From Candidatus Endomicrobium macrotermitis (GTDB lineage: Bacteria > Elusimicrobiota > Endomicrobiia > Endomicrobiales > Endomicrobiaceae): a stretch of 64,000 nucleotides of DNA. The notes beneath the pieces are model-generated. The model saw nothing but the letters and a program-made list of their open reading frames with translations. It made no database searches and was not told where the DNA came from. This document shows positions 13,282 through 34,500 of this stretch, piece by piece. The position numbers were made by a program, and so were the translations under genes. Location of the stretch: positions 36,149-100,148 of the forward strand of contig JAISVT010000039.1 in NCBI GenBank assembly GCA_031271405.1. The letters run 5' to 3'. The number at the start of each line of letters is the position of its first letter. Position 1 is the first letter of the stretch.

Positions 13282-14928
13282 ATGGCTAAATTTAAGCTTA
13301 CCGAAACTCCACAGTGGAAAAATCTTGAAAAACACAGAGAAGCAAATAAAAATCTTCACATGAGAGATTTGTTTAAAGATGACGGAAGGTTTAACGAATT
13401 TTCAATAGCAGACGAAGATTTGGGGATAACATTCGATTATTCTAAAAACATAATAAATTCCGAAACGTTTAAGCTGCTTATGGATTTCGCAAAGGCGGCA
13501 GGCGTAAACGAATACGCAAAAAAAATGTTTTCCGGAGAAAAAATCAACTGGACGGAAAAAAGGGCGGTGCTTCACACCGCATTAAGAAACGGAAGCGATA
13601 AACCGGTTTATGCGGACGGCAAAGACATTATGCCCGAAATAAACGCCGTGCTTGAAAAAATGAAGGTTTTCAGCGAAAACGTGAGAAGCGGAACATGGCT
13701 TGGCGCCACGGGCAAAAAAATCACCGACATTATAAATATAGGGATAGGCGGCTCGGATTTGGGGCCTAAAATGGTCTGCGAAGCGTTAAAATATTACGCG
13801 GACGGCCCGAACGTTCATTTTGTGTCGAATATAGACGGCGCGGATATTTACGAAACGCTGAAGAAAATAAATCCCGAAACGTCTCTTTTTATAGTCGCTT
13901 CCAAAACGTTTACGACTCTTGAGACGATGACCAACGCTTTCAGCGCGAAAAAATGGCTTACGGAAAAGCTCGGAGACAACGCGGTGGCAAGCCATTTTGC
14001 CGCTTTGTCCACAAACGGAAAAAAAGTGAAAGAGTTCGGCATAGACGAAAAAAATATGTTTGAGTTTTGGGATTTTGTCGGCGGCAGGTATTCCCTTTGG
14101 TCTGCAATAGGCCTGCCTATCGCATGTTCGGTCGGTTTTAGCAAATTTGCCGAACTGCTCGAAGGCGCCCGTTATATGGACAATCATTTTTTAAACGCGC
14201 CTTATGAAAAAAATATGCCCGTAATCATGGCCGCGCTCGGATTTTGGTATAACAACTTTTTCGGCGCGCAAAGCCACGCGGTTTTGCCTTACAGCCAGTA
14301 TCTGCACAGATTTACGGCGTATTTGCAGCAGGGCGATATGGAGTCCAACGGGAAAACCGTAAATATCGAAGGCGACAGGGTCGATTATGAAACGGGACAG
14401 ATAATTTGGGGCGAGCCCGGCACAAACGGGCAGCATTCTTTTTACCAGCTTATACATCAGGGGACGAAATTGATTCCCTGCGATTTTATAGGATTTGTGA
14501 ACCCTCCGCAAAGAGTCGAAGATCATCATGAAAAACTTATGGCAAACTTTTTTGCCCAGCCAGAAGCTTTGGCTTTCGGACTTACAAAAGAGCATGTTAT
14601 AGAAAATCTGACAAAAGCGGGACTTTCAAAAGAAGACATAGCAATGCTTGCGCCGCATAAAGAGTTTGAGGGAAATAAGCCCACAAACAGCATTTTAATC
14701 AATGAATTGACGCCAAAGACTTTGGGAGCGTTGATAGCTTTGTACGAACATAAGATTTTTACGCAGGGCGTGTTCTGGCGGGTCAACAGTTTTGACCAAT
14801 GGGGCGTGGAACTCGGCAAAGTTCTGGCAAACGCGATTCTTCCGGAGCTTCAGGGCAAAGCGGACAATTCGCATGACGTATCGACAAAAAATCTGATTAA
14901 AACATTCAAAGAAAAGAAAAAAATCTGA
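13282..14928 (+). CDS. pgi: Glucose-6-phosphate isomerase
   Basis: [64 protein letters not shown]. Confidence 0.98.
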
Positions 14929-14957: not shown

Positions 14958-14986
14958 TTGCCTGTCGGTTTTTTTTGATGTATAGT
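14958..14986 (+). promoter_or_regulatory. Sigma70 promoter with T8 tract in the spacer; likely leaderless transcript
   Basis: TTGCCT-N17-TATAGT with extended TG; ATG at 14993 lies at the expected +1; no SD. Confidence 0.55.
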
Positions 14987-14992
14987 TTAATT

Positions 14993-15487
14993 ATGAAAAT
15001 CAGAAAAATTATATCTATTATGATTATTTCTCTGATGATTTTGCCGTCTCTGGCAAAATCCGTTAGCGCCGATTCCGCCGTAAATCTATACGTAAACAGC
15101 GGAATAGCGGGTTATTATAATTCCATATCCAAAGCCGCGTTCGATATGACGCACAGGGTTTTGCAGGAACTCGGCGTTTCCTCGGAGCAAACTTCCAAAA
15201 AAGAAGTTCCGGCAAAAAATGAAACAGAAAACAATGATGAAGCGCAGGCCGTTATTTTAGACAATGCCTCGAAAAAGTCGGTTAAAACCATAGTTTCTTT
15301 TACTCCCGTTTTTTATGAAACGGCAAACAATTTTGAAAAGCCGGCGGTTTCGGCAAATTTTGATTTTCTTTTTGCGGGTTGGATGCTGTTTTTCGTACTG
15401 ATGTGTATTTTTTCCGTAAGAAAGAAAGATGATTGCGGAGTTTATTTCAATTATTACTATATAAGCAGACGCCCGATTGTATTATAG
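14993..15487 (+). CDS. Small hypothetical membrane protein upstream of the giant gene
   Basis: N-terminal signal/anchor (MKIRKIISIMIISLMILPSLAKSVSA) and C-terminal TM (LFAGWMLFFVLMCIFSV-RKK). Confidence 0.7.
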   Translation: MKIRKIISIMIISLMILPSLAKSVSADSAVNLYVNSGIAGYYNSISKAAFDMTHRVLQELGVSSEQTSKKEVPAKNETENNDEAQAVILDNASKKSVKTIVSFTPVFYETANNFEKPAVSANFDFLFAGWMLFFVLMCIFSVRKKDDCGVYFNYYYISRRPIVL

Positions 15488-15554: not shown

Positions 15555-18500
15555 ATGTCTAAGATTATCAAGATGTTAAACTTTAAAAAGATTGTTTCCG
15601 CGGTTACGGCGGTTTGTTTCACTTTTTCGATTTTTTCGGCGAACGCTTTTGCGGCGCCCGCGCAAAGCGCGGCTCCGGCGCTTCAAACGGTCAATGCTTC
15701 TCCGGCGTTAAACCCTTCGAACTTTGTCGTTCCTTTTAACATAGGAAGGGTCACGGATTCCGTAAATTTTAAAAGCGATAAAGTTATAGTGCAAATTCAG
15801 GATTTGCACGCGCACGAGGAAACCCAGAGAAACATAGCCGGCATCCTCTCCCTTTTAGATTCAAAATATGGAATAAGCAAAGTATATGTTGAGGGCGCGG
15901 TCGGCGGCGTTGACACGTCGTGGCTTGCCGGCATTTCAAATGAAAGTTTGAAAAGCTCCATAACGGATTCGCTTCTTGCCGAAGGCGTTTTGACAGGGTC
16001 GGAATTATTTTCCGTCAATTCCGGGAAAACAAATATACTGAAAGGCATTGAAGACAGAAAAGCGTATTTGGATAATTTCCAAAGGCTTATAACGATAGAT
16101 TCGCAAAGAGACGAAATAAAATCGCTGTTTCCCGAAATCAGAATGATTCTTTCGTATTTGGCTGACAGACATTACGGGAAAGAAAACAGAAGGATCGGCT
16201 CGATCGTAAACAGATACAGGAACGGCAAAATTTCTTTTGACAAATATTTTTCTTTCCTGGTCAAAAAAGCGAAACAGCAAAACGTTTATTTCGGTTTCTA
16301 CCCTTCGATAGTTTTGTTGGCCGATATTATGAAAGTCCAAAACAGGCTCAATAAAAATAAAATTAATTCGCAGATAGCGGGCTTTTTGGAAGAACTCAAA
16401 TCCGAACTCGCGTATTCGGAGTATAAGGAACTGATAGAGTATTCGTCAAAGCCCGAAACCGAAGGAGTATTTTATTTTAAACTCGCCGAGTTTTACAATA
16501 AAGGAAATTACGGCGGAAAATATCCGGAACTTGCGAAATTTTTGCAGTTTATAGACCTTAACCAGACAATAAACCCGATAAATCTCGTAAATGAAGAAAG
16601 AGCTTTGCTGTGGGAAGTCAAAAACAAGGCCGCTGTAAACGGCAAAGAAAAAGAACTTATTTATTTGAGTTCTTTTATCGATTTGCTGGAAGGCTTTCTT
16701 GAAAACAAAATTACCGCTCCGGAATATCAGTATTTTGAAAGAGAGCTGCCTAAATTTAAAACTTTGTGGACAAAATATACCAGAATGACGGAACTTCCTG
16801 CGCTTGAACGGTATTATTCCCTGTTTGAAAGTTTTTACAAAGTCAATGTTGAGAGAAACAATATATTCGTAAAAGAAATAAGCGGCAATTTACCCGGCAC
16901 GAAAGCCTCGAATATGACGTTTTCAGGCGATATGGTGATGACCGATGCGGCGGGGCTTCTTGAAAGCGCAAAAGAAGTTGAAGTTGTAGTAACCGGAGGT
17001 TTTCACACTCAGGACGTTTCGAGAATTTTGCAAAACGCCCGCCAAAGCTATATTGTAATAACCCCAAACGTAACCCGGGACGCTGACCTTGCCGATAAAC
17101 TGTTTGCCGAAGACGTAATAAGAATTTCCAAATATATCCCGACAAATACTTTTCAGAAAGCTCTTCAGTCTGCCCGTCTGGATTTGACTGACGGCAGTGT
17201 TAAAAGCGCTGTGGGGATTTTCTTTCAAAAAGCCGTAATAGACGCTTTTAAGGCAGAAGCCGAGAAACAGCTGCAAGACAACGGTATTGACCCGTCAAAA
17301 GTCAGCGCTGCGGAATTATCGGAAGGCATAACGGAAGGCATAGAAAATTCTTCGATAAAATCGGAACTCAGTAAAAAAGGAGTCGAAGATTTTACAATCA
17401 AAGGGGTCGCCGTTAACAGTGACGGCAGTTATCTGGTAACCGTTGAATCTAAAGGGATTGAGACGGTATATTTAGTTGCTGAATCGGGCATTTCCGACGC
17501 GTCCGCAGATACCGGAAGCGCTGAAGAAAAGCCGAACGTAATTATAGCAATTGCCGGCGACATAGCTGAAGGTTTATCAAACGCGGTAAATAATATAGGT
17601 GAATTTTTCGGTTTGGCTGACAACCGCGCCGGATCTACGATAAATTTCCTTATCGCTTATGACAATTATAAAGCTTTGCCCGCGGGTTCGCAAAACAATC
17701 AAGCATACGCGGAAAACCTGAAAAGCGCCATAGATGAAGTGGAAAAACTCGGAGATAGAGTTTCGGATTCTTTAAGGCAGCAGGTTGAAGAAGCAAAAGT
17801 TCAGACCGGCTGGACGCCGGCTGCGCCGTTGCTGACTGCCGATTCCACTAAAAAAGCGTTCAGCAGGTTTTTCGGCGAGCGGTTTACAAATACGATTGTC
17901 GGACGGTTTATCGTTTCCGTCATAATTGCACCCTTCTATGAAAGAAGTAAGTTGATGGAAATTTACGAACTTCGCGGTATGGCCGATAATCCCGGACTCA
18001 ATGAAGAAGAAAGCGCGGACATTAGAAGACAGGCTGACGAGGCCCTCAGAGATTTCTTGATGGACCATGAAGATTATAAGATGGGAGAGTATGACGAAAG
18101 GGCGGCGTACAGAGCCGCATCTTCAAATATTTTCAGGATTTCCGGAAGGGCATATATAGCCGTTTTAAGAGTTACAAAAATAGAGGCATTGGCAAATTTA
18201 GCGGCAAATATTGCAAATGTGGCTGCTCATATGGCGTCGAATTTCGCGGGGATAACAAAAGGCGGAATTGTTTTGACAAGAGACGCGGAAGCAGTCGCAG
18301 TGCCGAATGAGCAGCAAATTTCCGCGTTATTGTCATCTATGAATTTAAGCGCGGAAAATGAAAGAACATTCAGAGAGATTATAGGGATATTGATCGAATT
18401 GAATGATACAAATGCTTTGGACGCAATATTTAACAAAGCAAATAACGAAAATAGAATTGAGCTGCTTTCCGCATTGGCTGAATTGAACAACCGCCGCAGT

Positions 18501-21500
18501 CTGGCCGAATATGTCGAAACGTTTAAAACAATTGCCGCAAGTTCAAAAGAAGGAGTGAATCCGACTACCGGAAAAACGACAAACCCCGTAAAAGAGAAGT
18601 CTGCAAAACAGATCGGAGGCTTTGAAGACCGGCAATACCAGAGATATTCCGATGAAGGGTTAAAGCACGCTGACGAACTGGCTGTCGTTTTAGTTGCAGG
18701 CGGAGTCGGAGACAGGCTGCGTTATAAGGTCAGAAATGAAAAAGGCGAACTTGTTGACGGTATTAAAATAGGCATACAGCCGAGTATAATAGACCAGCAA
18801 AGCTATCTTGAAAACGTGCTTAGTGAAATGGACGGATATGCATTGCAGCAAGGGAACAATGCGCATCCGATCCTTACGATAATGACGAGCGACAGCACTC
18901 ATGATATGACGGTCAAGTTTATTACCGAGAAGCTCGGATACACGCTTAAAGAAGTTGAAGTCGCGCCCGGCATTGTGAGAGTTGAATTGACCAATAATGC
19001 GAGGCCTACCGATAAGATATACATAATGACTCAAAAAAATGTGCCGGGGATTTTGGGCCCTGACGGAAGGCTTGCGATTGCCGAAGATAAAGATGAAGCG
19101 GGCAATCCTACCGGACATTACTCCCTCGAGACAAAACCGCACGGGCACGGAGACGTCCACGAATTGATGTACAGGACGGGCGTTGCGGGCGAATTGCAAA
19201 AGGCCGGAAAAAGCAAACTGATGTTTATACAAGACACAAACGGCGCGGTTATGAATACGGCGCTTTCTATGACCGGAATGATGTTTGAAGAAGGCAAGAA
19301 ACTTGCTGTTGGCACCGTTGCCATAGATCCCGGTGTTGACGCCGTAGGCTCCCTCATAGAAGTAACCGATCCCGAGACCGGAAGAACGTATGTGTTTAAT
19401 TTAGAATACAATTACGTAAAAGAGATGATAAAAAACGGGACGATAAAACAAGAGGATGTACCGAATTACATAAACGGAAATGTCAATATATTTGCGGTTG
19501 ACGTGGGCGCGTATATCGGTATTTTGGAAAGAACGGAGGGGAAAGTCGGAGAATTTACGAACCCTAAGCCTTCTTCGGACCCCAATACGTATAAATCTAC
19601 TGCCAGAATAGAAACCGAAATGCAGAGAATATATACGGAATTTGCCGAAGATGAAGTCGGCATAATAAATTTTCATGACAGGCCGTTTGCTTTCACTACG
19701 GCAAAGAACGGGATAAGAAATGCCGACGGCAGTTTTGTTGAGGGCGAACAAAAAGAAACTCTTCCTTCTTCCGAAGAAGATATCAATGAAAATTACAGAA
19801 AGATTTTGAGATTCGCCGGAGTTGAAGTTTCTGAAGCAGGAGAGGAAATAACTCTCGGACAGCAATATAAGAGAGGCTCTCAGATAAAGTTAAGGAATTG
19901 GGGATATACGCCCGATTCCGTGAAGGCCAGATTCAGCGGAAAAAATACAATAAGCGCAAGAAGCGCCGTCAGGTTGGACGGAAATGTGGGCTTTAACGGC
20001 CTTTCTGTTGACGGAGCCGTTAATGTCGTTGCCGCAAAAGGCGTAAGCGTAAGATTAAACGGCGCTATACAAAATGACGGCTACAGGACCGTTATGTATG
20101 CGGATGACGGTGAAAAAGCAAGAGAATTGCTTGAGCAGAAGCAATATGACCTTATGTCGCAATACGGCGTAAGGGGATATTACGCCGAGAAACTTCAGGA
20201 ACTGGACATAAAAATAACCCGTCCGGGTAACTATGAAGTATCGGTTGCCGGCAATAGAGTTATTGTAAGAGATACGGCCAGCGGAAGAGTCGCAATATTT
20301 GATTCCCTGAATGTTGAGGTTGACTCAAAAACAGAATTTACCGAAATGGAATCAATCGGCGAGGCAGAGCAACCGCAAGCCGGCGCGGTGCGGGCAAAAA
20401 CAGAACCTTTAACAAAAACGAATATTTGGCAGTCATTGAAAAGAGCTTACGACATAATGAAGAGAACGACAATAGCGGAATTGTACAAAAACGACCCCGA
20501 CAGGCAAACGAGAGAGTTGAGAGAGCGCAATTATACTATGTCGTTAAACGGCGAAAGTACGAATATGAGGTTTGATTTCGGTTTTAACAATCTTACTCAA
20601 GACGAAATTTCTCTGTTGTTGGATTTGGCCAGAGACAGGGACGTAAAAGGTTTTATAAGAGATATGATGAGCGGCGTAAAAATAAACACGTCCGAAAACA
20701 GGGCGGTTTTGCATACGGCTTTAAGAAACGTAAAAATGGAAAACGGCAAAATTGTAAGTTTAGGCCCTGTTTACGTTGACGGACAAGATGTTATGCCGCA
20801 GATAATACGCGAGCTGGAAAAAGCAAGAAATTTCGTAAACAGGTTGCACGGCGGCGAACTGAAAGGCGCCACGGGCAAACCTATTAAAACCATAGTAAGC
20901 ATAGGAATAGGCGGTTCGGACTTGGGGCCGAGAATGGCCTCGGAAGCATTGGAAAAATACAGAAAAGAGGGAATAGAGGTTAAATATATATCTAACGTTG
21001 AACCGAGGGCGGTTCAGAAAATTATTGAAAGCATAGACGACCTGGAAACTACTTTAATAATAGTCGAATCAAAAACGTTTACCACTCAAGAGACTACAAC
21101 TAATGCGCAAGCTGTAAAGGAACAGTTGATTGAAAAACTTAAAGCAAGCGCTGCTCTGGAAGCGGTTGTAACAAAAATGTCGGGAGACCAAATGTATGTA
21201 ATGGAGTTCGAATTGGTTCAAGCCGGAGAAGAAGGACACCGGATACCGATGGAAGATATTGAAAGTATTCAGGAGCGTGCCGAAAAAAGGCTTGCCGAAA
21301 GAAATATTAACGTTGCGCAGCTCAAAGCCGAAAAATATGAAGAGCGTGTAAAGTTTTATCTTGAAGAGAGAAAACGCAAATATGCGGAAGAAAAGGCCTC
21401 TGTGGGAGAAACGGTCAGCCAGGCAGATCTGGACAGTATAAGAGTGCCGTTATATGTTGATGAAAAGGCGGCGGAGCTTGATACTATGCGCTGGTATCTC

Positions 21501-24500
21501 GATTATATAAGCAAAGAGTATCAGGAAGAGCTTTCGGATTATATAGTTTCCAGGCATTTTGTCGCCGTGTCAACGGCAAAACAGCTGGTGGATGAGTTCG
21601 GCATAGATTCCGACAACAATATGTTTGAATTCTGGGATTTTGTCGGCGGCAGATACTCAATATGGTCAACGATAGGGCTGCCTTTGATGTGTTCCATAGG
21701 GTTTGACAACTTTATGGATATGTTGAAAGGCGCAAATACCATGGATCGCCACACTCTGGAAGCCGATTACGAAGATAATATCCCGATGAGGCTGGCATTA
21801 ATATGGATGTGGTACAGCAATTTCTACGGGTATGATCTCCATGCCGTAATTTCTTACAGCGAAGATTTGGCCAAGTTTGCGAAATATCTGCAGCAGCTGT
21901 ATATGGAAAGTCTTGGGAAATTTGTGGACAAAGACGGGAACCCCGTAGATTATAAAACGGGAGTGGCCGTTTTTGGAGAACCCGGAACGGATTCACAGCA
22001 CTCTTTCTTCCAGTTATTTCATCAGGGAACCGTAATAACTCCTATCGATTTCATCGGTTTTGTCATAGCTCCTGCGATAAAAGAAAATATGCCTATGGAA
22101 GAGCGTAGAAAAATACAGGGAAGACACGATATATTTATGTCGAATCTTTACGCGCAGCGCGAAGCAATGGCATTCGGTAAAGATTATGAGCAGGTTAAAG
22201 CCGAAACGGAAGCTTTAAGAGATGAAGTTGTAAATAAAATGAAAGCAGAAAACGCGTTATACGCCGACATAGAGTTTGAAATAGCGAGATGGAACGCAAT
22301 TGTTCCGCAAAAAGCATTTGAAGGAAACAGGCCTTCAAACTTAATTTTATTTGACAGATTAACTCCCGAAGCTTTGGGAATGAATATCGCATTGTATGAG
22401 CATTTAACGGCAATTCAGTCCGCGATATGGAACATAAACGCATTTGACCAATGGGGAGTTGAACTAGGCAAATCCCTTGCGAAAATATTGCAGCCGTTTA
22501 TGGGATTGGGCAAAGAGGCGGCTAAATTAGCAGGAAAAGTCAGCGGCACAACTTTAGACAATGTCGGATATTACAACAATGTGCTTGAAAATGCCCCCGA
22601 GTTTGCCCAAGCCGCGGCAGAGCCTTTCAACCGCGGCGGCATAGTTGCCCGTACAGCCGAAGCATGGCTGGGCAGGATGCAGGCGATGTTTACTAAAAAA
22701 GAAACAGAAAAAGCAGAGGCAGAAAAAGACTCGGAAAAAAAGCAAATATTGGAAGCGAAAATAGGCGAAGGCGCGGCGCTTACGGAAAGGCTTTTTGCAC
22801 AGTTTGAAATTTTGACCAGGACAGCGTTGGCGGAAGAAATGTCAGCCGAACAAATAGTGGATCTTTTTGCCAATAGAGATATCGAGATAGAAGTTGACGG
22901 AGTTAAAAAGACGGTCAAAGGGCTTACGAAAGAAGAAGCCGAAAAAATGAAGGCAACGTCTCTCAATCCCGAAAGCGAGGATAGAATTAAGTTCGGTACC
23001 GCGGGATACAGAAAACAATTCGGTCCGATGTTTAATTATGTTCATGCTATGGTAATCGCCCAGGCTGATGCTATGCGGCTGAAAGCAAAGAAAAGAATTC
23101 CCAGAGTGCTTATAGGGTATGATACGAGATTTATGTCTAAAGAGATTGCGGAAATTTATGCCGGCGTACTTTCCGCAAACGGAATCAACGTATATTTAAG
23201 CGACAAAGACATCCCTACTCCGGTAATTTCGTACTTGTTAAAACTCGGGGGATACGACAGCGCGGTCAATATAACCGCAAGCCATAACGCTTTTGACAAT
23301 AACGGCATCAAAATAAACGAAGCAAACGGAGGACAGGCTGTTCAGGAAACGACAAGCGCTTTAGAAAGAAATATAACCGACATAGTTTCAAACGGCGTAA
23401 AAATCAGGTATATACCTGCTGAGCAAGGCAAGAGGATTGCCAGGAGAGGAGTCGGCAGAATTAATGTATTGACGGATAAAGAGGCTATGGACGTATATTT
23501 GAGCGGTTTGGAAGCAATGCTGGAAGGGCTGGGTATAGATAAAACAGACGGAAATCTTAAAGGAAATGCCGCCGGAAGTTTCCTTGCGGTTGACACGAAA
23601 AGCGGAACCTCTCCCGCCTATTTCAAAAGAATGCTCGAGATGTTCGGAATTACGGAAGCCAACGGCAATCTTTCCATGATCAACGATGAATTCGATCCGA
23701 CTTTCCAAGGCGAAGATCCTAACCCCGACAGAAACATTGACAAATTGGTTGAAACCGTTACGGAAGCATTTAATCGCGGCAGGCTTTCTGTCGGAATTGC
23801 TACGGATCCTGACGCGGACAGGCTGGGTTTTACAGTTAACGGCATACGTTATACTACCGATCAGTTGATTTTTGCCGTAACCAGCGAAACATTGATGAAT
23901 GCTATCAGGGAATATGACGCTACCGGCAGAAAACAGGTCTTTGCGGAAGTTATAAACCAGCCTACAAGCGCTTCGACGGAATCTTTGAGGGATAATCTCG
24001 AAAACGCCGCCGGCATAATAGCCGATGAAAAAGGATTGACGGGGCAGGCAAAAGCCGACTTCATAAATGAAGTAAAAAATAACGTAACGTTTGAAGTTGT
24101 GCGCACCCCCGTAGGATTCAAGTGGATTGCTCCGGAACTGGAAGCTCTTGAAAAGAGAGCCGCGAAAGGCGAAACCGATTATTGGATTATCGGCGCGGAA
24201 GAATCCGGCGCTCTTGTTTTGGGCAAGAACAAAGTCCTTACTTACGATAAAGACGGTATTTTTATCATGCTCTATCTGGCGCTTCTCACCATTAAGACCG
24301 GCAAAAGCATGGCCGAAATGCTTGAAACGGCTGATAAAATCACGGGCTGGACTCCGGAAAAATATTTACAGAATATAGGGCTCGGCGAACTTTCTCAGCT
24401 TGCCGTGGTCAAAGAATATTTGAGGAATGCTTCAATTCCGGGCGCTGCACAATCGAGCTTTATAGATTCTTTAGCCGAAATAATGGAAAAATACGGCGCT

Positions 24501-26726
24501 AAAATTACCGGAGTTAAAGACGTAAATATTATTAACGGAGTGAAAGTTGACGAAGATTCCACAAAGGCAAAAGACGATAAAGACCAGCCTTTCGAAGGAG
24601 TGGAAATAACTACCGATAAAGGTATTAGGGTAATTGTGAGGCTTTCGGGTACGGAACCTATAGTAAAAGCTTATGTCGATACGGATTATGCCGAAGTCGG
24701 GAGCGAAGTGAAAAACGGAAAGACGGTTCCCGTAACTAAAGCCCAAGATATTGCCAAATCTTTTGAAAAGGTTGTTAAAGATGTGGCTTCACCGGAAACC
24801 GCGCAGCAAGAAACCGAATCCGGTATTCAAAAAATCATAAGCGACATTATCAAAGCTATCGCCGGGCTTTTGGGGATAAATTTGAGGAGCACTTATATTT
24901 CTAAAAACGCTTCGGAGCTTATCGGCAAGGAAGATACTATAATCCTCGGGGAATATTCCGACGATCAGTCTTTGTTCGACAATGCCGCCGAAAAAGCCGC
25001 GCTCGGCAAGAACGTAAATATAATTATGCCTTACGGCGCCGCGGCGGAAACAATCGAATCCGTAGGAAACACCGGTTCAAGGCATATTTACAAAAAGACT
25101 ATTACTCAGGATAACGGTTACTCGGTCAATGTCTGGTACTATTCCGGCGAAGTAACGGATTCGGCCGCGGCTTATGACGCTTTCAATTATGTGGCAAACG
25201 AGATCGGAGGAAATATCGGGATAGTGGAAAACGCGTCGAATATTTCTCTTAACGATATTACCGTTGCCGCGCCGCTGGCCGCAGTTTTCAAAGTAACGTC
25301 TAATGCCGCCGAAGACATTCAGGCGAAAAACGAAGGATATCAGAATTTTACCAACGGGATGTCCGAAGAAGACAAAGTCAAAGTTTTGGCCGGCAGGCAA
25401 AAAGAAGACAGGGAAGGCGACAATATGAGAAACCAGCTTCCGCTGATAACCAATGTCGGCGCAGCGCAAATAAAAAATACGGATATGATCGCGTCTCTTA
25501 TGACTACGGTGTTTTCCGTAGAGATTGCGTCCGTTTCCGAATTTGAGCAAAATGCCGGCGACCTGATAAATTTTATCAGAGCGGCTCACGCGGCGGATAA
25601 AAGAGTAGTTTTGAATTTTAAACCCGCGAACGCGCAGGAAGCTGGAAAGATTATGGAAATGATAAACGGCAAAGGATTAAGGGGCTTGAGAATCAGCTTG
25701 ACGGAAAACGGAGTAAGATCGGGCATCGACGGAGTAATGTTTGATTTCGATTCGCTCGGCAGCGAAGAATTCAATAAGATCGCAGGCAGCCTGGCAACAG
25801 CCGCTTCCGCGGTAAAGAGAGAAAATTCCGGCGCGATAATATCCGTTAAGTCCGATTTTTACGCGCAGCGCATCGCCGGCATCGACAACTATAACGAATA
25901 TATCAACATAAGCGGAAATTACAATGAGAATACGGTTGACGTAAACGAAATTGCGCAATCCGCCAAAGACGCCATTGAAAGAGGGGCAAAGGCTTTGGTC
26001 ATAGACTACGAAGTTTTAGAGCTTTTGCAAACGCGCGGAATAAATGTCGATATATACGGCCTTTTCCTGGGGATAGTTGCAGCATGGACTTCGTATGTAA
26101 AGAAAACGCCGGAAGGCATTTACAGAAACGCAAGGCGTTCGGGATATAAAGAGAATATAAATTTGACTCCCGAGCAGGAAAGCGGATTGTATGAAGCGTT
26201 GAGAGAATTAAATGCCGGAAACAAAGCCGCGGTGCAAACGGTTTCCGAAATTTTGCAAACGTCCAAAGCGAATGTTTTGGACAAAGAAGAAACGGCGGAA
26301 GCAAGAGGCTACGTACAGGGCGTTCTTGAACAGTTTTTGGTTAAGAATTTCGGCGAAAAGACGTTTGAATATAAAACAAACGCGGACGTTTACAGAATCG
26401 CTTTGGTAATGGCGAAAATGAACGGGATGAGCGACGATGCCGTAAAAAGCGCGCTGGACAGTGATTCCGAAAAAATAGCGCAAATGCTTGTCAGGCTCGA
26501 TATAGACGACGTATCTGCCGGACAGGTGCAAAAAGACGTACAGGAAGGAATTAACGTTCTCATTTCGGATTTGGAAGATAACAGGATTGACAATGACGGA
26601 AAACCTCAGGCGATTACCGACTTGCTGGCTATGCTCGGCATAGCTCAAACTACCGAAGTCAAAATGGAACAGGTTAAATTTGACGATCAGCGCGCGGGAA
26701 TTGTCGCAATTTTGTCCGCAGCGTAA
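15555..26726 (+). CDS. Giant (3723 aa) signal-peptide protein: N-terminal QDLH/EG/GGFH domain, UDP-sugar pyrophosphorylase, glucose-6-phosphate isomerase, phosphoglucomutase-family domain, C-terminal domain
   Basis: Uninterrupted 11.2 kb ORF, SD gaaagggg, signal peptide ending ANAFA, enzyme motifs listed in the domain features. Confidence 0.93.
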   Translation: MSKIIKMLNFKKIVSAVTAVCFTFSIFSANAFAAPAQSAAPALQTVNASPALNPSNFVVPFNIGRVTDSVNFKSDKVIVQIQDLHAHEETQRNIAGILSLLDSKYGISKVYVEGAVGGVDTSWLAGISNESLKSSITDSLLAEGVLTGSELFSVNSGKTNILKGIEDRKAYLDNFQRLITIDSQRDEIKSLFPEIRMILSYLADRHYGKENRRIGSIVNRYRNGKISFDKYFSFLVKKAKQQNVYFGFYPSIVLLADIMKVQNRLNKNKINSQIAGFLEELKSELAYSEYKELIEYSSKPETEGVFYFKLAEFYNKGNYGGKYPELAKFLQFIDLNQTINPINLVNEERALLWEVKNKAAVNGKEKELIYLSSFIDLLEGFLENKITAPEYQYFERELPKFKTLWTKYTRMTELPALERYYSLFESFYKVNVERNNIFVKEISGNLPGTKASNMTFSGDMVMTDAAGLLESAKEVEVVVTGGFHTQDVSRILQNARQSYIVITPNVTRDADLADKLFAEDVIRISKYIPTNTFQKALQSARLDLTDGSVKSAVGIFFQKAVIDAFKAEAEKQLQDNGIDPSKVSAAELSEGITEGIENSSIKSELSKKGVEDFTIKGVAVNSDGSYLVTVESKGIETVYLVAESGISDASADTGSAEEKPNVIIAIAGDIAEGLSNAVNNIGEFFGLADNRAGSTINFLIAYDNYKALPAGSQNNQAYAENLKSAIDEVEKLGDRVSDSLRQQVEEAKVQTGWTPAAPLLTADSTKKAFSRFFGERFTNTIVGRFIVSVIIAPFYERSKLMEIYELRGMADNPGLNEEESADIRRQADEALRDFLMDHEDYKMGEYDERAAYRAASSNIFRISGRAYIAVLRVTKIEALANLAANIANVAAHMASNFAGITKGGIVLTRDAEAVAVPNEQQISALLSSMNLSAENERTFREIIGILIELNDTNALDAIFNKANNENRIELLSALAELNNRRSLAEYVETFKTIAASSKEGVNPTTGKTTNPVKEKSAKQIGGFEDRQYQRYSDEGLKHADELAVVLVAGGVGDRLRYKVRNEKGELVDGIKIGIQPSIIDQQSYLENVLSEMDGYALQQGNNAHPILTIMTSDSTHDMTVKFITEKLGYTLKEVEVAPGIVRVELTNNARPTDKIYIMTQKNVPGILGPDGRLAIAEDKDEAGNPTGHYSLETKPHGHGDVHELMYRTGVAGELQKAGKSKLMFIQDTNGAVMNTALSMTGMMFEEGKKLAVGTVAIDPGVDAVGSLIEVTDPETGRTYVFNLEYNYVKEMIKNGTIKQEDVPNYINGNVNIFAVDVGAYIGILERTEGKVGEFTNPKPSSDPNTYKSTARIETEMQRIYTEFAEDEVGIINFHDRPFAFTTAKNGIRNADGSFVEGEQKETLPSSEEDINENYRKILRFAGVEVSEAGEEITLGQQYKRGSQIKLRNWGYTPDSVKARFSGKNTISARSAVRLDGNVGFNGLSVDGAVNVVAAKGVSVRLNGAIQNDGYRTVMYADDGEKARELLEQKQYDLMSQYGVRGYYAEKLQELDIKITRPGNYEVSVAGNRVIVRDTASGRVAIFDSLNVEVDSKTEFTEMESIGEAEQPQAGAVRAKTEPLTKTNIWQSLKRAYDIMKRTTIAELYKNDPDRQTRELRERNYTMSLNGESTNMRFDFGFNNLTQDEISLLLDLARDRDVKGFIRDMMSGVKINTSENRAVLHTALRNVKMENGKIVSLGPVYVDGQDVMPQIIRELEKARNFVNRLHGGELKGATGKPIKTIVSIGIGGSDLGPRMASEALEKYRKEGIEVKYISNVEPRAVQKIIESIDDLETTLIIVESKTFTTQETTTNAQAVKEQLIEKLKASAALEAVVTKMSGDQMYVMEFELVQAGEEGHRIPMEDIESIQERAEKRLAERNINVAQLKAEKYEERVKFYLEERKRKYAEEKASVGETVSQADLDSIRVPLYVDEKAAELDTMRWYLDYISKEYQEELSDYIVSRHFVAVSTAKQLVDEFGIDSDNNMFEFWDFVGGRYSIWSTIGLPLMCSIGFDNFMDMLKGANTMDRHTLEADYEDNIPMRLALIWMWYSNFYGYDLHAVISYSEDLAKFAKYLQQLYMESLGKFVDKDGNPVDYKTGVAVFGEPGTDSQHSFFQLFHQGTVITPIDFIGFVIAPAIKENMPMEERRKIQGRHDIFMSNLYAQREAMAFGKDYEQVKAETEALRDEVVNKMKAENALYADIEFEIARWNAIVPQKAFEGNRPSNLILFDRLTPEALGMNIALYEHLTAIQSAIWNINAFDQWGVELGKSLAKILQPFMGLGKEAAKLAGKVSGTTLDNVGYYNNVLENAPEFAQAAAEPFNRGGIVARTAEAWLGRMQAMFTKKETEKAEAEKDSEKKQILEAKIGEGAALTERLFAQFEILTRTALAEEMSAEQIVDLFANRDIEIEVDGVKKTVKGLTKEEAEKMKATSLNPESEDRIKFGTAGYRKQFGPMFNYVHAMVIAQADAMRLKAKKRIPRVLIGYDTRFMSKEIAEIYAGVLSANGINVYLSDKDIPTPVISYLLKLGGYDSAVNITASHNAFDNNGIKINEANGGQAVQETTSALERNITDIVSNGVKIRYIPAEQGKRIARRGVGRINVLTDKEAMDVYLSGLEAMLEGLGIDKTDGNLKGNAAGSFLAVDTKSGTSPAYFKRMLEMFGITEANGNLSMINDEFDPTFQGEDPNPDRNIDKLVETVTEAFNRGRLSVGIATDPDADRLGFTVNGIRYTTDQLIFAVTSETLMNAIREYDATGRKQVFAEVINQPTSASTESLRDNLENAAGIIADEKGLTGQAKADFINEVKNNVTFEVVRTPVGFKWIAPELEALEKRAAKGETDYWIIGAEESGALVLGKNKVLTYDKDGIFIMLYLALLTIKTGKSMAEMLETADKITGWTPEKYLQNIGLGELSQLAVVKEYLRNASIPGAAQSSFIDSLAEIMEKYGAKITGVKDVNIINGVKVDEDSTKAKDDKDQPFEGVEITTDKGIRVIVRLSGTEPIVKAYVDTDYAEVGSEVKNGKTVPVTKAQDIAKSFEKVVKDVASPETAQQETESGIQKIISDIIKAIAGLLGINLRSTYISKNASELIGKEDTIILGEYSDDQSLFDNAAEKAALGKNVNIIMPYGAAAETIESVGNTGSRHIYKKTITQDNGYSVNVWYYSGEVTDSAAAYDAFNYVANEIGGNIGIVENASNISLNDITVAAPLAAVFKVTSNAAEDIQAKNEGYQNFTNGMSEEDKVKVLAGRQKEDREGDNMRNQLPLITNVGAAQIKNTDMIASLMTTVFSVEIASVSEFEQNAGDLINFIRAAHAADKRVVLNFKPANAQEAGKIMEMINGKGLRGLRISLTENGVRSGIDGVMFDFDSLGSEEFNKIAGSLATAASAVKRENSGAIISVKSDFYAQRIAGIDNYNEYINISGNYNENTVDVNEIAQSAKDAIERGAKALVIDYEVLELLQTRGINVDIYGLFLGIVAAWTSYVKKTPEGIYRNARRSGYKENINLTPEQESGLYEALRELNAGNKAAVQTVSEILQTSKANVLDKEETAEARGYVQGVLEQFLVKNFGEKTFEYKTNADVYRIALVMAKMNGMSDDAVKSALDSDSEKIAQMLVRLDIDDVSAGQVQKDVQEGINVLISDLEDNRIDNDGKPQAITDLLAMLGIAQTTEVKMEQVKFDDQRAGIVAILSAA
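18600..20270 (+). other. Domain: UDP-sugar pyrophosphorylase (USP/UGPase family)
   Basis: VVLVAGGVGDRL, TKPHGHGDVH, FIQDTN, NLEYN, GNVN, EFTNPK, TARIETEMQ, then a beta-helix-like tail (LSVDGAV). Boundaries approximate. Confidence 0.85.
20410..22590 (+). other. Domain: glucose-6-phosphate isomerase with ~130-aa insertion
   Basis: [65 protein letters not shown]. Boundaries approximate. Confidence 0.95.
22980..24790 (+). other. Domain: alpha-D-phosphohexomutase (PGM/PMM)
   Basis: FGTAGYR, GYDTR, phosphoserine loop ITASHN, metal loop TDPDADR, TPVGFKWI, GAEESG, DKDG, RLSGTEP. Boundaries approximate. Confidence 0.95.
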
Positions 26727-28512: not shown

Positions 28513-31500
28513 ATGGCTATTAATTATTTTACGGGCATTAAGAAATACATTAACAATTTTTTTGAAAGAGTCGAGTTTCATGCCGAAGACATGAATATTC
28601 TTTTTACGAAATCAAAAAGGGAAGAATACGACAAACTTTTAGAGTTCTACAATACCACGGTCAAGCAAAATCCCACCGACGCGTCGGCGTATTACAACCG
28701 CGGGCAGATACATCACAAAAAAGGAAAATACGAAGACGCCATAAGAGAGTTTACGAAAGCCATAGAATTGGACCCCAATTATTCTTTTGCATATGTCGCA
28801 AGGGGAGAGTCTTACGCCGCTCTCGAACAATTCGATATTTCTCTTGAAGATTTCCGCAAGGCCGTAGAGCTGAATCCCAAAAATTCTACGGTTTTCAGCG
28901 GACTCGGCAACGTTTACAGGCGGCAGGGAAACTACGGCGAAGCGATCCGTTATTTTGACGAAGCGCTGGAGCTCGGCAAGGAAAACGCGGCGGCATATTA
29001 CGGAAGGGCTATGGCGTACAGATACAAGGGAGAAACCGAAAAATCCATAGCCGATTTTACAAAATCGATAGAGCTTAACCCGAACGACGATTATTCCTAC
29101 ACCAACAGAGGCATAGCTTACAGAAACGCGGAAGATTTGGACAATGCGCTGAAAGATTTTAACAAATCTCTCGAAATAGAGCCCGGAAATTCTTTCACTT
29201 TGACCAACAGAGGCATAGCTTACAGGATAATGCTTGACGAAGACGCGGCGGAAAAAGATTTTAAAGACGCCGTTGCAAGCAATCCCGAAGATACGTTTGC
29301 CCATTATAATCTTGCAAACCTGTATAAGTACAAAGGCTTTCCCGATAAGGCTTTCAAGGAAATAGAAAAAGCCATAGAAGTCGATTATAAATTCGCTCCG
29401 GCGTTTTTAATGAGAGCCTATATGTACTGCGAACAGGGCGAATACGATACCGCCATCGAAGATGCCGAGCAGGCTATAGAATTTATGCCGGAAGTGGCGT
29501 TCGCGCGTTTTTTCAAAGGCTATATACAGCACGTAATGAAAGATTTTAACGGCGCGGTGGAAAGTTACCGGATCGCCGTTGACATTAAAGACAATGTTCC
29601 GGAAATATTATACGCTTACGGGCTTTCTGCTTTGGCCGGAAAAGATTTTCAGCTTGCGGATTCGAATTTTACGCGCGCCTTAGAGCTCGGCTTCAAACCC
29701 GCGGAAATATATGTGGCAAGAGGGCAGTCCTTTCTGTCGGTGAAAAACAATCTTCTCGCCGTAAAAGATTTTAACGAAGCTTTAAACAAAGACAACGGCA
29801 TAATCGAAGTTCATTATATGAGAGGGGAAGCTTATTTTAACCTCAAAGAATATAAAAGCGCGGTAAAGGAATTTATTGAATGCGCGGAAAACAATTATCA
29901 GAAAGCCGAGTCGTTTTATTTTGCCGCAGCCGCGTATTTCGAGCTTGAAAAATACAGGGATGCCGCGTCTTTTTTTACAAAAGCGAAAGATGCGGGGTAT
30001 TCGGTTTCGGAAATATATAAACGCCGTGCGAAAGCTTATCTGAAAATTGACGAAAAAAAAGAAGCTCTTGACGATTTGCAAAGAGCCGTTAAAGAAACCC
30101 CGCAGAATCCTTCCCTGTACAAAACCCTTGCCGAAGTTATGATCGACGAAAAGAAATACGAAGAGGCTTTGGGATACGCCGATGAAGCCGTAAGTTTGTC
30201 GCAAAATGACGAGACGGCTTATTATTTGAGAGCTAAAATAAAATTCGCGCAGAAAGATTTCAAAGGGGCGATTGAAGACTGCGAAAAAGCCGGCGAATTG
30301 TCTCCGGATTACGCAGACGCCATTCTTTTGAAAGCCGACGCGCATATGTACGAGGGGAATCTTGAACAGGCGGAAAAAGATTACGATTCCGTTTTGGTTT
30401 TAAGGCCTACCAGCGGCGACGCGTATCTTAAAAGAGCGTTGTTTTTCCTTAAAACGGGAAAGTTTGAAAGATCTCTCACCGATATTGACGAAGCGCTGGC
30501 GATAGACGACAACAATCCTTCGGCCTATCTTTACAAAGGCGTCATATACAGAAATATGGGAAATTTCGGAGACTCTCTCAAAAATTACGATATGGCTTTG
30601 AAAATATATTCGAACGATAAAGTCATAAAAAGCAGCAAAGGGATGTTTGAGTTCAAAGATTATTATAAAAGCCATTCCGGGGATCTTGCGGGTCTTCACG
30701 GCGACATAGAAAAGATTAACCAGGAAATACCGGGTTACGATAAAGTCATAAAAGCGGATCTTTTTGAAGAGAGCGGCGTTACTCTTTCGGGCGGAGAAAA
30801 AAAGAAAACCGCGTACGACTCTCCCGAAATGCCTAAAGAGTTGTCGGAAATAACCAAACTTAAAACTCTCAAGCCCGAGAAACTTTCCGCTGAAAGGGGT
30901 TCCTCTGCGGCTAAACATGAAAGTCTGAAGAATGAAGACGATGAATTCGAAATTTCGGCGCCGAAAAAGAGAGAATCCGAAGACGATGAAGATATTTTCG
31001 ATATTTCCGTTCCGGCCGCTCCAAAAAGCGGCGGCAGAGAAGAAAAATCCGGAGATGCCGCTGATGACGATTCGGACGGCGGAGCGGACGGCGATGCGGT
31101 TGTCGCCGGCGGATTGAAAGATAAACTTAAAGACATAGACGAACTGATAAAAAACTTTAAAAACAAAAGCGGCCCGCAAAAATCTTCCGACCCTGTGCCC
31201 GAAAGAAAAAAAGAAGAGAGTTTGCTTGACGATATAAAAGAAAAGAGCCCCCGCCGCGAAACCCCCGCGCCCAAGCCTGCCGCGGATACGGATGAGGAAG
31301 AATCGGGAATGAGCGCGAGCGAGAGTTTAAAGCAGAAGCTTGCCAATATCGACAAGGTGTTAAAAGACAGCCCTCAGCAGCTTATTCAAAGAGCGGAAAA
31401 GAAAAGAACCATTTTTATAGAAGAAGATAAAAAACCCGAAGCAAAGAAGGACTTTTCCAATATAACGACTTTCGGCGAAGCGATAGAAGCAATAAAAGCC

Positions 31501-34500
31501 GAGCCTGACAATTATAAGCATTATATGGCGAGAGCCGCGCTTTATCTGAAAAAAGAGGATTATGAAAACGCTCTTGAAGATTATAAGCGCGCCGAGAAAG
31601 CTACGGCTTCCAAAGACGTATCCGTCTTAAAAGAAACGGGCGACCTGTACTTTATGCTCGGCAAAAACGAGGAAGCCGAGTCCGTCTATACAAAAGCTTT
31701 GGAAATAGACTCCGAAAATTCGGAAATGTTTATCAAAAGGGCGCAGGTTTACGAAGTTATGGGCAGGGAAAAAGATTTTTACAGGGATATAGCCGCGGCC
31801 ATCGAGTCCGACCCGAATAACGTTCAGCCTTTTGCTATGCGCGCCGAGTATAATGTCGGCAAAAACGCTTTTCATGACGCTTTGAGCGACATTAACGAAG
31901 TCATTAAGGCTTACCCCGATAATCCGAGCACCAGATATTTCAGAGGTTTCGTTTATTTCAATCTCGAAAAATACCGCGACTGCTTCGATGAAATGCAGAT
32001 AGCTTTGCAGCTGAAAACGGAAGAACCGGAAGTATATAAGTATTTGGGAATAAGCAGTTTTAAGATGTTCAAATATCCCGAAGCCGAGGATTTCTTCAAA
32101 CAGGCCGTGGACGCGGGAGTAAAAGACAAGGATGTTTTTTATTATAAAGCCAGAACCGAGTTCAGAATCGGCGACTTTGACAAATCCACCGAAGATATTT
32201 CCGCGGCGATAGAGCTTGACGCGCAGGATTATAAAAACTACGTTCTCAGAGCCAGAAATTACGATAAAAAAGGAAATTTTGAGAAAGGGAACAGGGATTA
32301 TGAAAAGGCCGTTAAGCTAAATCCGTCTGACGCGGCTTTGCTTACCGAAAAAGCGGATTATATGTTTAAAAACGAAAAATATGCAGTCGCGCTTAAAGAT
32401 TATTCCACCGCTATAGAACTCGATGAGTTTAACGCCGAACTGTATAGAAAGCGCGGTCTGACAAATCAAAAACTCGACAAACCGAAAATAGCCCAGGAAG
32501 ATTTTGCAAAAGCCTACAGTTTAAATCCCGATATAGACGTGCCTCTTGAAAGGGAAAAAGTCGTATTAAGGCCTGCGGGAAAGAAAGTTCCCGGAAGGCC
32601 TGCTTTGGATTTGAAAGGGCCGAAAGCCGCCAGAGTTGCGTCTTCTGCGCCTGAAGAGCCCGTAAAGGAAAAGCCGGAACCGGACTCCTCTCAAAAAAAG
32701 GAAAGTATTTTTGAAGAGCCAGAACAGCAGCAGTCCGGGCCTGCGCCTGTAAATATTGAGCCGGAAAACGGCTCCGTAAAAGAGCAGGAACCCGAACCGC
32801 AAACAGAATCTGAAAAAGGGATCGATATTGCCGCCTCGCAGACAGACGATATTATTACTGCGAAAGAACCGGTAAATATTGAAGATACGCCCGAATATGC
32901 CGTAGAAATTATTGATCCGAATAAGCCCGAACCCGCGCAGTCTCAATCCGGGGATAATGAAAACTTCGAAGTATTTGAACCGGTGGTTCCCTCACGGCTT
33001 GCATCCAAGGAACAACAGCCCGAGCCCGGTTTCCAAACTTTTGAAGCAGAATCCGCGCAGCCCCAGCCTGCGGATAATGAAAAGTTCGAAGTGTTCGGGT
33101 CCGCGGTTACCGCACAGCCTGCGTCCGAAGAACAGCAACAGCCCGAGCCCGGTTTTCAAACTTTTGAAACAGAATCCGCGCAGCCTCAGCCTGCGGATAA
33201 TGAAAAGTTCGAAGTATTCGGGTCTGCGGCTCCGGCACAGCCTGCGCCCGAAGTACAACAACAACAGCCGGAACCGGGTTTCAATGCTTTCGGGGCTAAA
33301 ATCGAGCCTCAGCCTGAAATGCCTGTAAAGCGGGAAACGGTAAGGGAAGAAAGGCCGAAGCCCGAGAAAATGAAAACTATTTCCACGGTCATAGAACAGA
33401 CCATGGATGTCGAATTGTGTCCCGCGTCCGAAGAAGATTTGCAGTTTTTTAGCGACAGTATAATGTCTGTCGTGCAGGGTAACGATAATTCGAAAGGATA
33501 CGCGCAGCAAACCATAGATTCCATACGCGGCGGCGATTATTCCGCCGCTCTTGAAAATATAAACAAGGTAACGGATTTTCATCCTGAAGACGCCAAGATA
33601 AAGTACATAAGAGGGTTTATTTATTACAATCTCAAAAATTTTAAAAGCGCGTATGAAGATATGTACAGGGTATTGATATTGGATCCCGAAGGAAACAGAA
33701 GTAAAAACGAATCCGCGATTTACAGATTTTTGGGAATAAGCAGTTTTATGATTTTTAAATTTTTAGACGCCGTGAAATATTTGAATCAGGCTGTGAGTTT
33801 CGGGTTTGCCGATAAAGACGTTTACTATTTTAAAGCCGAGTCCGAATATAAAACCGGCGATATGGAAGCCGCTATAGACGATATCACGAAAGCAATAGGA
33901 ATAGATCCGGACGATTACAGGCTCTATGTTTCAAGAGCCAGAAGTTATTCGAGAAAGAATATTTTCGATAAAGCGAATAAAGATTACGAGAAAGCCGTCA
34001 AATTGCGTTCCGGCGATACGAAAGTGCTTATCGAAAAGGCAAAATTTCTTTATAAGTTTGCCAAGTATTCCGACGCTCTTGAAGATTATACGTCAGCCAT
34101 AGAGATAGATCCGTTCAATAAGGAAACATACAAAAAACGCGCCGAGACATATCTTAAATTAAACAAGCCTAAACAGGCTGACGATGATTTTAGAAGGGCA
34201 GGCATTGACGATGCTTCCGTCGGCGGTTTGACGGCCGGAGCGGATTTGTCAAGAAGCGAGGATGCCGGAGGAAAAGCGCCCGCCGGCGAAAACGGCGGCT
34301 CGAAACCGCGCGGCGGCGTTCCCGTTCAAAAAGTCGAGTCTGTCTATGAAGAGCCTCCTGCGGAACAATCTTCCGGCTTTTTCGGAAAACTTTTCGGAAA
34401 GAAAGAGAAACTTAAAGAGGTCATAAAACCGACGGACAGCAGAGTGAGCGAAGTAAACCGTCCTTCCCAGCCTGCCGCTGCGCCTCAGGCTAAAGGCAAA

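Follow-up and report, generated by a model that had tools for sequence, protein, structure and literature searches.

A UDP-sugar pyrophosphorylase-type module in a giant multi-enzyme protein of Candidatus Endomicrobium macrotermitis

UDP-sugar pyrophosphorylase (USP), for which the expected reaction is UTP + sugar-1-phosphate <-> UDP-sugar + pyrophosphate, is known in most accounts from plants and from parasitic protists. Why, then, does a sequence with the motifs of the plant enzyme occur in the middle of a 3723-aa open reading frame (ORF) of Candidatus Endomicrobium macrotermitis, a member of the Elusimicrobiota? The frame lies in a stretch of 64,000 nucleotides (GenBank assembly GCA_031271405.1, contig JAISVT010000039.1, positions 36,149 to 100,148, forward strand), hereafter called the window, and an initial annotation of this DNA had proposed a horizontal exchange with a eukaryote or with a rare bacterial lineage. 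We consider it quite likely that the sequence is a complete and probably active USP, which would form an exchangeable module within a bacterial branch of giant proteins. The story of a transfer from a eukaryote, although tempting, is unsupported for this module.

Identity and distribution of the pyrophosphorylase module

The initial annotation had relied on seven motifs at 18600-20270 (VLVAGGVGDRL, TKPHGHGDVH, FIQDTN, NLEYN, GNVN, EFTNPK, and TARIETEMQ). All seven were present in the translation of window positions 18510-20420, and the plant motifs with which they had been compared were found in the aligned USPs of Zea mays and Stylosanthes; this agreement is far beyond chance. When aa 986-1622 were searched against all PDB chains with phmmer, the best match was MbUSP (9uml/9umk; 537 residues, E 8e-40); the remaining USP entries (L. 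major 3ogz/3oh0 and 8tg2/8tgs) matched at about 1e-17, and no UAP or UGP chain appeared at E ≤ 1. Scores against a profile of 47 family sequences ranged from 1e-215 to 1e-131 for USPs, and were about 1e-31 for UAPs and about 1e-15 for UGPs. Among Pfam families at E ≤ 10, the module matched UDPGP only, apart from noise, and had no match to the GalU-type family (NTP_transferase); the UDPGP match itself was weak and covered aa 1023-1253. The envelope of the hidden Markov model (HMM), by comparison, extended from aa 929 to aa 1606 (window 18339-20372) and covered profile positions 9-608 of 617, and the module is therefore full length. A USP domain does lie within the span of about aa 1020-1570 that had first been proposed, but the actual module is wider.

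An alignment-based AlphaFold model of the module (pLDDT 88, pTM 0.88) was confident throughout the core. Among PDB folds, it came closest to those of L. major USP (TM 0.76-0.82 over 624-665 columns); UAPs of fungi and human ranked lower. All 25 family-invariant columns were kept in the module, with residues identical to those of eukaryotic and stand-alone bacterial USPs; they include the AGGxGxRL nucleotide-binding loop (G1049, G1050, G1052, and R1054), Lys1071 after this loop, KPHGHGD, QDTN, NxEYN, GNxN, EFxNPK, and KN. At most of these columns, the non-USP UDPGP proteins used below as an outgroup differed from USPs. Two insertions were observed, one of 10 aa after the nucleotide-binding loop and the other a β-hairpin of about 20 aa ahead of the KPHGHGD motif. 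Matches, predicted fold, and invariant residues identify window positions 18339-20372 as coding for a complete USP-type enzyme of the UDPGP superfamily (PF01704), and the module is probably catalytically active. The initial reading of the domain as USP-type, rather than as GalU, UAP, or UGP, is thus borne out.

With a word-indexed search, 852 proteins were recovered. Those ranked highest, about 30% identical to the module, were stand-alone proteins of about 600 aa from Verrucomicrobiota, Pontiella, and Omnitrophota, mixed with plant USPs. An exhaustive search of 1.84 billion representatives clustered at 50% identity yielded 676 matching clusters (E ≤ 1e-3), and the closest of these were long: P0123 (3071 aa, 48% identity), followed by proteins of 1100-4800 aa. 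Ten near representatives were looked up; five of them carry names, all from Omnitrophota. Tandem USP-type modules were observed in P0123 (aa 1025-1654 and 1673-2366), and two UDPGP matches were seen in one 2965-aa frame of genome G087 (C19:10686-13682).

A pattern scan of one genome per species (185,579 species) revealed at least 202 USP-type relatives, mostly stand-alone genes of about 600 aa from Verrucomicrobiota and Kiritimatiellota. The best 80 of these 202 included 32 from Verrucomicrobiota, 26 from Kiritimatiellota, 5 from Omnitrophota, 4 each from Elusimicrobiota and Planctomycetota, and 3 from Lentisphaerota. Ten relatives were located in open frames longer than 900 aa, in Elusimicrobiota, Omnitrophota, Planctomycetota, and one bin labelled Bacillota. 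USP-type genes are broadly spread in the PVC group, and the giant-protein modules form a separate branch.

In Elusimicrobiota (201 genomes), USP-type UDPGP matches were found in frames of 1,138-8,993 aa, save for one 693-aa frame at a contig end. Other families of this phylum (f19, f14, and f23; L093-L104) carry a stand-alone UDPGP protein of about 353 aa (PF01704, about 1e-55), which is without most of the USP-invariant residues. The USP-type module is single-copy in its own genome (1.89 Mb, 99.7% complete). It was detected in 4 of the 40 relatives searched, always within giant frames, and a search of three congeneric genomes, each 99% complete, did not find it.

Cargo turnover and predicted location

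The giant protein starts with a conserved region, the head, which over the first ~540 aa is 39-45% identical among the window protein, the USP-bearing giant of genome G021, and P0123, and 67-73% identical to orthologues in the same genus. The head is characterized by the motifs QDLHAHEETQ, VYVEGA, VVTGGFHT, and ITPNVT; it had no Pfam match, and a PDB profile search gave no credible match. Head sequences matched 21 places in the own genome (G000; among others on contigs C49, C41, C62, C18, C48, and C58), and 5-36 places per genome in 31 of the 41 genomes searched, the own genome included. Most of these matches begin long open frames (2,000-12,656 aa); shorter frames also occur, in part truncated by contig ends. 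At the other end of the protein, the tail is 55% identical to that of the same-genus orthologue in G003 and 21% identical to that of P0123.

Within the genus, the cargo between head and tail is turned over. The G003 orthologue (L114, C3:94000-111500; 5222 aa) carries PGK and a methyltransferase, and the G002 orthologue (L115, C46:1-13638; 2908 aa), whose alignment starts at aa 2362 and reaches the end (38% identity), carries PGM only; both keep head and tail. No USP, not even a degenerate copy, was detected in either orthologue by hmmsearch with the filters off, and a weak PF01704 match in G002 was discarded as a USP module on the same grounds. Since these orthologues keep head and tail and carry different cargo, the USP module is best regarded as exchangeable cargo. 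This giant protein is built from a Sec-type leader, the conserved head, a variable enzyme cargo, and a conserved tail, with cargo exchanged between species.

More distant relatives carry further combinations. In the G021 giant (4970 aa), ADK, PGM, PGI, and a pair of membrane helices precede USP, while the order in the G010 giant is ADK, PGM, USP, PGM, PGI; USP, PGM, and PGI therefore co-occur in both, in another order than in the window protein and together with adenylate kinase. A giant of G025 combines SLOG/LOG domains with USP, and an Omnitrophota giant combines HAD, USP, and a uridine-kinase-like domain. Across the set, the cargo of relatives comprised ADK, PGK, HAD, LOG/SLOG, Metallophos, and methyltransferase domains. 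Directly downstream of the G021 USP giant, we also observed a second giant gene (L008 1-8295, minus strand), which codes for at least 2765 aa and carries cytidine/dCMP deaminase and DUF218 domains.

Because USP is followed by PGI and PGM in the window protein, a single chain could run fructose-6-phosphate <-> glucose-6-phosphate <-> glucose-1-phosphate <-> UDP-glucose. The shuffled recurrence of USP, PGM, and PGI, the turnover of cargo within the genus, and the intact catalytic residues offer a testable biochemical hypothesis for giant multi-enzyme proteins.

The N-terminus offers a prediction of where such a chain would work. The signal peptide is the only strong hydrophobic segment of the giant protein (Kyte-Doolittle 1.71) and is kept in the head relatives. 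A hydrophobicity scan gave no persuasive membrane helix farther along; the one candidate segment, aa 777-795, is broken midway by an arginine, with only 11 hydrophobic residues after it. The module had been described as embedded in a secreted protein. It does lie inside a 3723-aa chain with a Sec-type leader, and secretion itself is a prediction from this leader. As a textbook Sec leader is the sole strongly hydrophobic segment, the cargo is predicted to lie outside the cytoplasm, a location that we hold to be somewhat better than an even bet, most of the remainder falling to the membrane's cytoplasmic side.

In one such cytoplasmic arrangement, the N-terminal segment would anchor a USP-PGI-PGM string that makes the cell's own UDP-glucose. 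All the substrates of this string are cytoplasmic, and a cytoplasmic-face cargo is predicted for nearly half of the Omnitrophota giants (10.64898/2026.06.07.730766). The own genome, moreover, had no GalU above the TIGR01099 cut-off (51 bits versus 326.8; best scores of 51-59 bits among G000, G001-G003, G010, and G021). However, lysines in the n-region together with the AxA site are what one would expect of a signal peptide that is cleaved, leaving the chain outside, and nothing farther along passes as a membrane helix. The three 99%-complete congeners without the USP module are also without GalU above the cut-off, which indicates that the module is dispensable within the genus; the own genome, in addition, retains pgi as a stand-alone gene and has three further PGM-type matches. 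A membrane-tethered string therefore seems rather unlikely to us.

Export, as predicted from the leader, also allows a bolder proposal, to which we give a small chance. The USP module would work outside the producer's cytoplasm, in an exported and species-variable cargo, the protein being among some 20 giants with this head in each genome. Together, USP, PGM, and PGI would tap or rewire a UDP-sugar/hexose-phosphate pool, either that of a different cell (a host or a prey cell) or that of a surface compartment.

Origin and catalytic state of the module

A FastTree phylogeny of 158 rows divided them into 70 bacterial rows (support 98) and a remainder of about 88, in which every row that bears a name is eukaryotic (plants, Heterosigma, Pythium, Tripos, and EukProt entries). 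A more careful tree was built using IQ-TREE (LG+C20 PMSF) from 70 rows, 66 of them USP-type and 4 forming the outgroup, namely the Elusimicrobiota UDPGP proteins of about 353 aa. The 66 USP-type rows, window included, were separated from the outgroup at 100/100. Eukaryotic USPs formed one group excluding the window module (100/98, and in 100% of bootstrap trees), and stand-alone bacterial USPs formed one clade at 92/99, sister to the eukaryotes at 92/99 in the rooted tree. The window module paired with P0123 (100/97), and both joined L013, from an Endomicrobiaceae genome, and L074 (100/100). The phylogeny that the initial annotation had called for thus groups the window module with giant-protein modules, inside the USP-type rows.

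L074 (JAEEHF010000003.1) comes from the bin labelled Bacillota and is a giant of at least 3383 aa with Metallophos and USP. Its USP was sister to the module of the Endomicrobiaceae genome (97-99 in quick and FastTree runs, inside the four-row clade), a placement that points to a mislabelled bin or to a transfer.

Judged by its matches and its place in the trees, the module was not captured recently from a eukaryote and belongs to a branch of the USP family found within giant proteins with a leader or membrane helices (Elusimicrobiota, Omnitrophota, and Planctomycetota); this branch is distinct from the stand-alone USPs of Verrucomicrobiota, Kiritimatiellota, and Lentisphaerota as well as from eukaryotic USPs. 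Under a capture, an ancestor of the four-row clade would have taken a USP gene from a plant, an alga, or a protist (a host, for example), and the gene would then have been built into the giant. Plant USPs do match the domain as well as stand-alone bacterial USPs do (28-29% identity, E about 1e-50). In approximately unbiased (AU) tests, forcing the four-row clade beside all eukaryotes cost 18 log-likelihood units (p 0.27), and forcing it into the plant-containing subclade cost 46 units (p 0.051, marginal); neither placement was firmly rejected. On the other side stand the exclusion of the window module by the eukaryotes in every bootstrap tree and its best matches, which are bacterial giant-protein modules; no eukaryotic sequence exceeded about 31% identity. 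Between the nucleotide-binding loop and KPHGHGD, furthermore, lies an insertion that is common to the window and Omnitrophota modules: the spacing was 123-146 in 12 of the 19 giant-set rows, and none of the 31 stand-alone and eukaryotic rows exceeded 119. The G+C content was ordinary as well (0.446 at 18001-20000, the same as for the window as a whole, across which it ranged over 0.40-0.48). We therefore regard a capture as very improbable. Of the two sources initially put forward, exchange with a eukaryote is not upheld; a bacterial lineage proves right, although its rarity was overstated, given the numbers of relatives and clusters reported above.

A deep inter-domain transfer may nevertheless have occurred somewhere in the history of the USP family. 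In the rooted tree, stand-alone PVC-type USPs adjoin the eukaryotes and the giant modules lie outside, so that eukaryotic USP would be part of an originally bacterial family.

A catalytically dead module, kept within a surface protein to bind sugar nucleotides or for structure only, is very improbable: certain invariant residues are lost in some giant-set modules (P0258, P0201, P0254, and P0233) and the nucleotide-binding loop of the window module is followed by an insertion of its own, but this module and its three nearest relatives keep 25 of 25 invariant positions, and the model is confident throughout the core. Widespread motif loss among giant modules, as suggested by strict regular-expression matching, was overturned when the alignment columns were read.

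Several points nevertheless weigh against the account that we prefer, that of a complete, probably active USP as an exchangeable module of a bacterial giant-protein branch. Besides the AU results given above, the giant-protein modules as a whole set were weakly supported (38/91), outside the stand-alone and eukaryotic groups. The outgroup branch was very long and was placed next to the giant-module set; because of this length, we place no confidence in the root. Among the 22 "eukaryote" rows, only 6 bear a eukaryotic name, and the tree was without trypanosomatid, UAP, or UGP sequences from eukaryotes. The loop of the window module reads GVGDRLRY, versus GLGERLGY in the family consensus, and its 10-aa insertion is unique. 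Finally, the supply of substrates is not obvious for UTP- and sugar-phosphate-dependent enzymes behind a signal peptide.

Layout of the locus and comparison with known systems

The coordinates of the giant gene, its parts, and its neighbours are collected in Table 1. Pfam gave no match in the first ~900 or the last ~660 residues of the giant ORF. The fused PGI (window 20373-22640) is 40-49% identical to the neighbouring stand-alone pgi, which is about as close as it is to the fused PGI of G021 (48%, C-terminal part); a recent local duplication of pgi was rejected on this basis.

A short peptide repeat was observed around the USP-PGI block, as GGIV(L)TRDAEAV at aa 903-915 (nt 18261-18299) and GGIVARTAEAW at aa 2361-2372 (nt 22635-22670). 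The second copy of this GGIV-x-R-x-AEA sequence lies where homology to G002 sets in again, and the repeat may be due to chance. It could not be retained as a demonstrated processing or recombination site, as it is not kept in six relatives and there is no repeat at the DNA level.

No secretion genes were found among the neighbours scanned (pgi, the 170-aa ORF, a CCA/poly(A) polymerase-type gene, and a 2162-aa TPR protein). The last of these, at window 28513-35001, consists almost entirely of TPR repeats. Farther along the window, a 1520-aa autotransporter with a PATR repeat was observed (57761-62323).

Table 1. Features of the giant gene and its surroundings in the window
Feature	Position	Strand	Basis
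Giant ORF, 3723 aa: leader, head, USP, PGI, PGM, tail	15555..26726	+	single open frame; Pfam UDPGP, PGI, PGM I-IV
Sec-type signal peptide, aa 1-33: KK, hydrophobic core, AFA/AP site	15555..15653	+	read from sequence; cleavage and export predicted
Conserved N-terminal head, aa 1 to ~545	15555..17204	+	matches to G021, P0123, and same-genus orthologues
Full-length USP-type module, aa 929-1606: N-terminal helices, catalytic core, C-terminal β-helix	18339..20372	+	HMM envelope, PDB matches, AlphaFold model
Nucleotide-binding loop VLVAGGVGDRL, then 10-aa insertion unique to the window protein	18684..18716	+	translation, alignment
KPHGHGD motif (within TKPHGHGDVH)	19134..19154	+	translation, invariant columns
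EFTNPK motif with invariant Lys1338	19551..19568	+	translation, invariant columns
PGI module, aa ~1619-2314, interrupted by ~100-aa insertion	20409..22496	+	Pfam PGI 8e-166
PGM/PMM module, domains I-IV, aa 2478-3047	22986..24695	+	Pfam
C-terminal tail, aa 3068-3723, without family match	24756..26726	+	identity to G003 and P0123 tails
Stand-alone pgi, upstream of the giant gene	13282..14928	+	order pgi, small ORFs, giant recurs in G021
170-aa ORF between pgi and the giant gene, without family match	14975..15487	+	neighbour scan

The best sequence and fold match of the module among known systems is USP itself (EC 2.7.7.64; plants and trypanosomatids; L. major 3ogz/3oh0-4, 8tg2/8tgs, and MbUSP 9uml/9umk), with which it shares the three-part fold, the 25 invariant residues, and the motif set. 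It is, however, only 21-33% identical to known USPs and has extra insertions. Moreover, whereas known USPs are cytosolic enzymes of about 600 aa, the module is one part of a much longer, leader-bearing protein. Stand-alone bacterial USPs (about 600 aa; Verrucomicrobiota, Kiritimatiellota/Pontiella, Lentisphaerota, and a few other phyla) belong to the same family and have the same invariant residues, at about 30% identity, but they are single-domain proteins whose clade lies next to the eukaryotes and not next to the window module. They are annotated at NCBI and JGI as UTP--glucose-1-phosphate uridylyltransferase or UDP-sugar pyrophosphorylase, and a review mentions USP in "a few bacterial species" (PMC6329318). 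Another article (PMC3938481) was set aside, as it concerns a different nucleotidyltransferase family. Bacterial GalU (TIGR01099, NTP_transferase fold, about 300 aa) catalyses the same overall reaction with glucose-1-phosphate, but it represents a different, shorter family without a match to the domain.

Multi-enzyme giant proteins are already known from preprints on Omnitrophota. The "Archaeovorins" (West-Roberts et al., bioRxiv 10.1101/2023.11.21.568195) are giants with PGI, PGM, TPI, FBPase, and aldolase, and pose the same puzzle of location; the "class 1 multi-enzyme metabolic clusters" (bioRxiv 10.64898/2026.06.07.730766) are named with PGI and PGM/PMM. Neither preprint settles where these giants lie or what they do. 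USP-type cargo did not turn up when the text of the two preprints was searched for UDPGP, uridylyltransferase, and pyrophosphorylase. Omnitrophota giants have been reported with neighbouring type II/IV secretion or pilus genes. The window protein differs from these giants in that it comes from Elusimicrobiota, is smaller (3.7 kaa), and has an expanded head of about 540 aa; like them, it is a chain of several thousand residues with a leader or membrane helix, tiled with ordinary metabolic enzymes.

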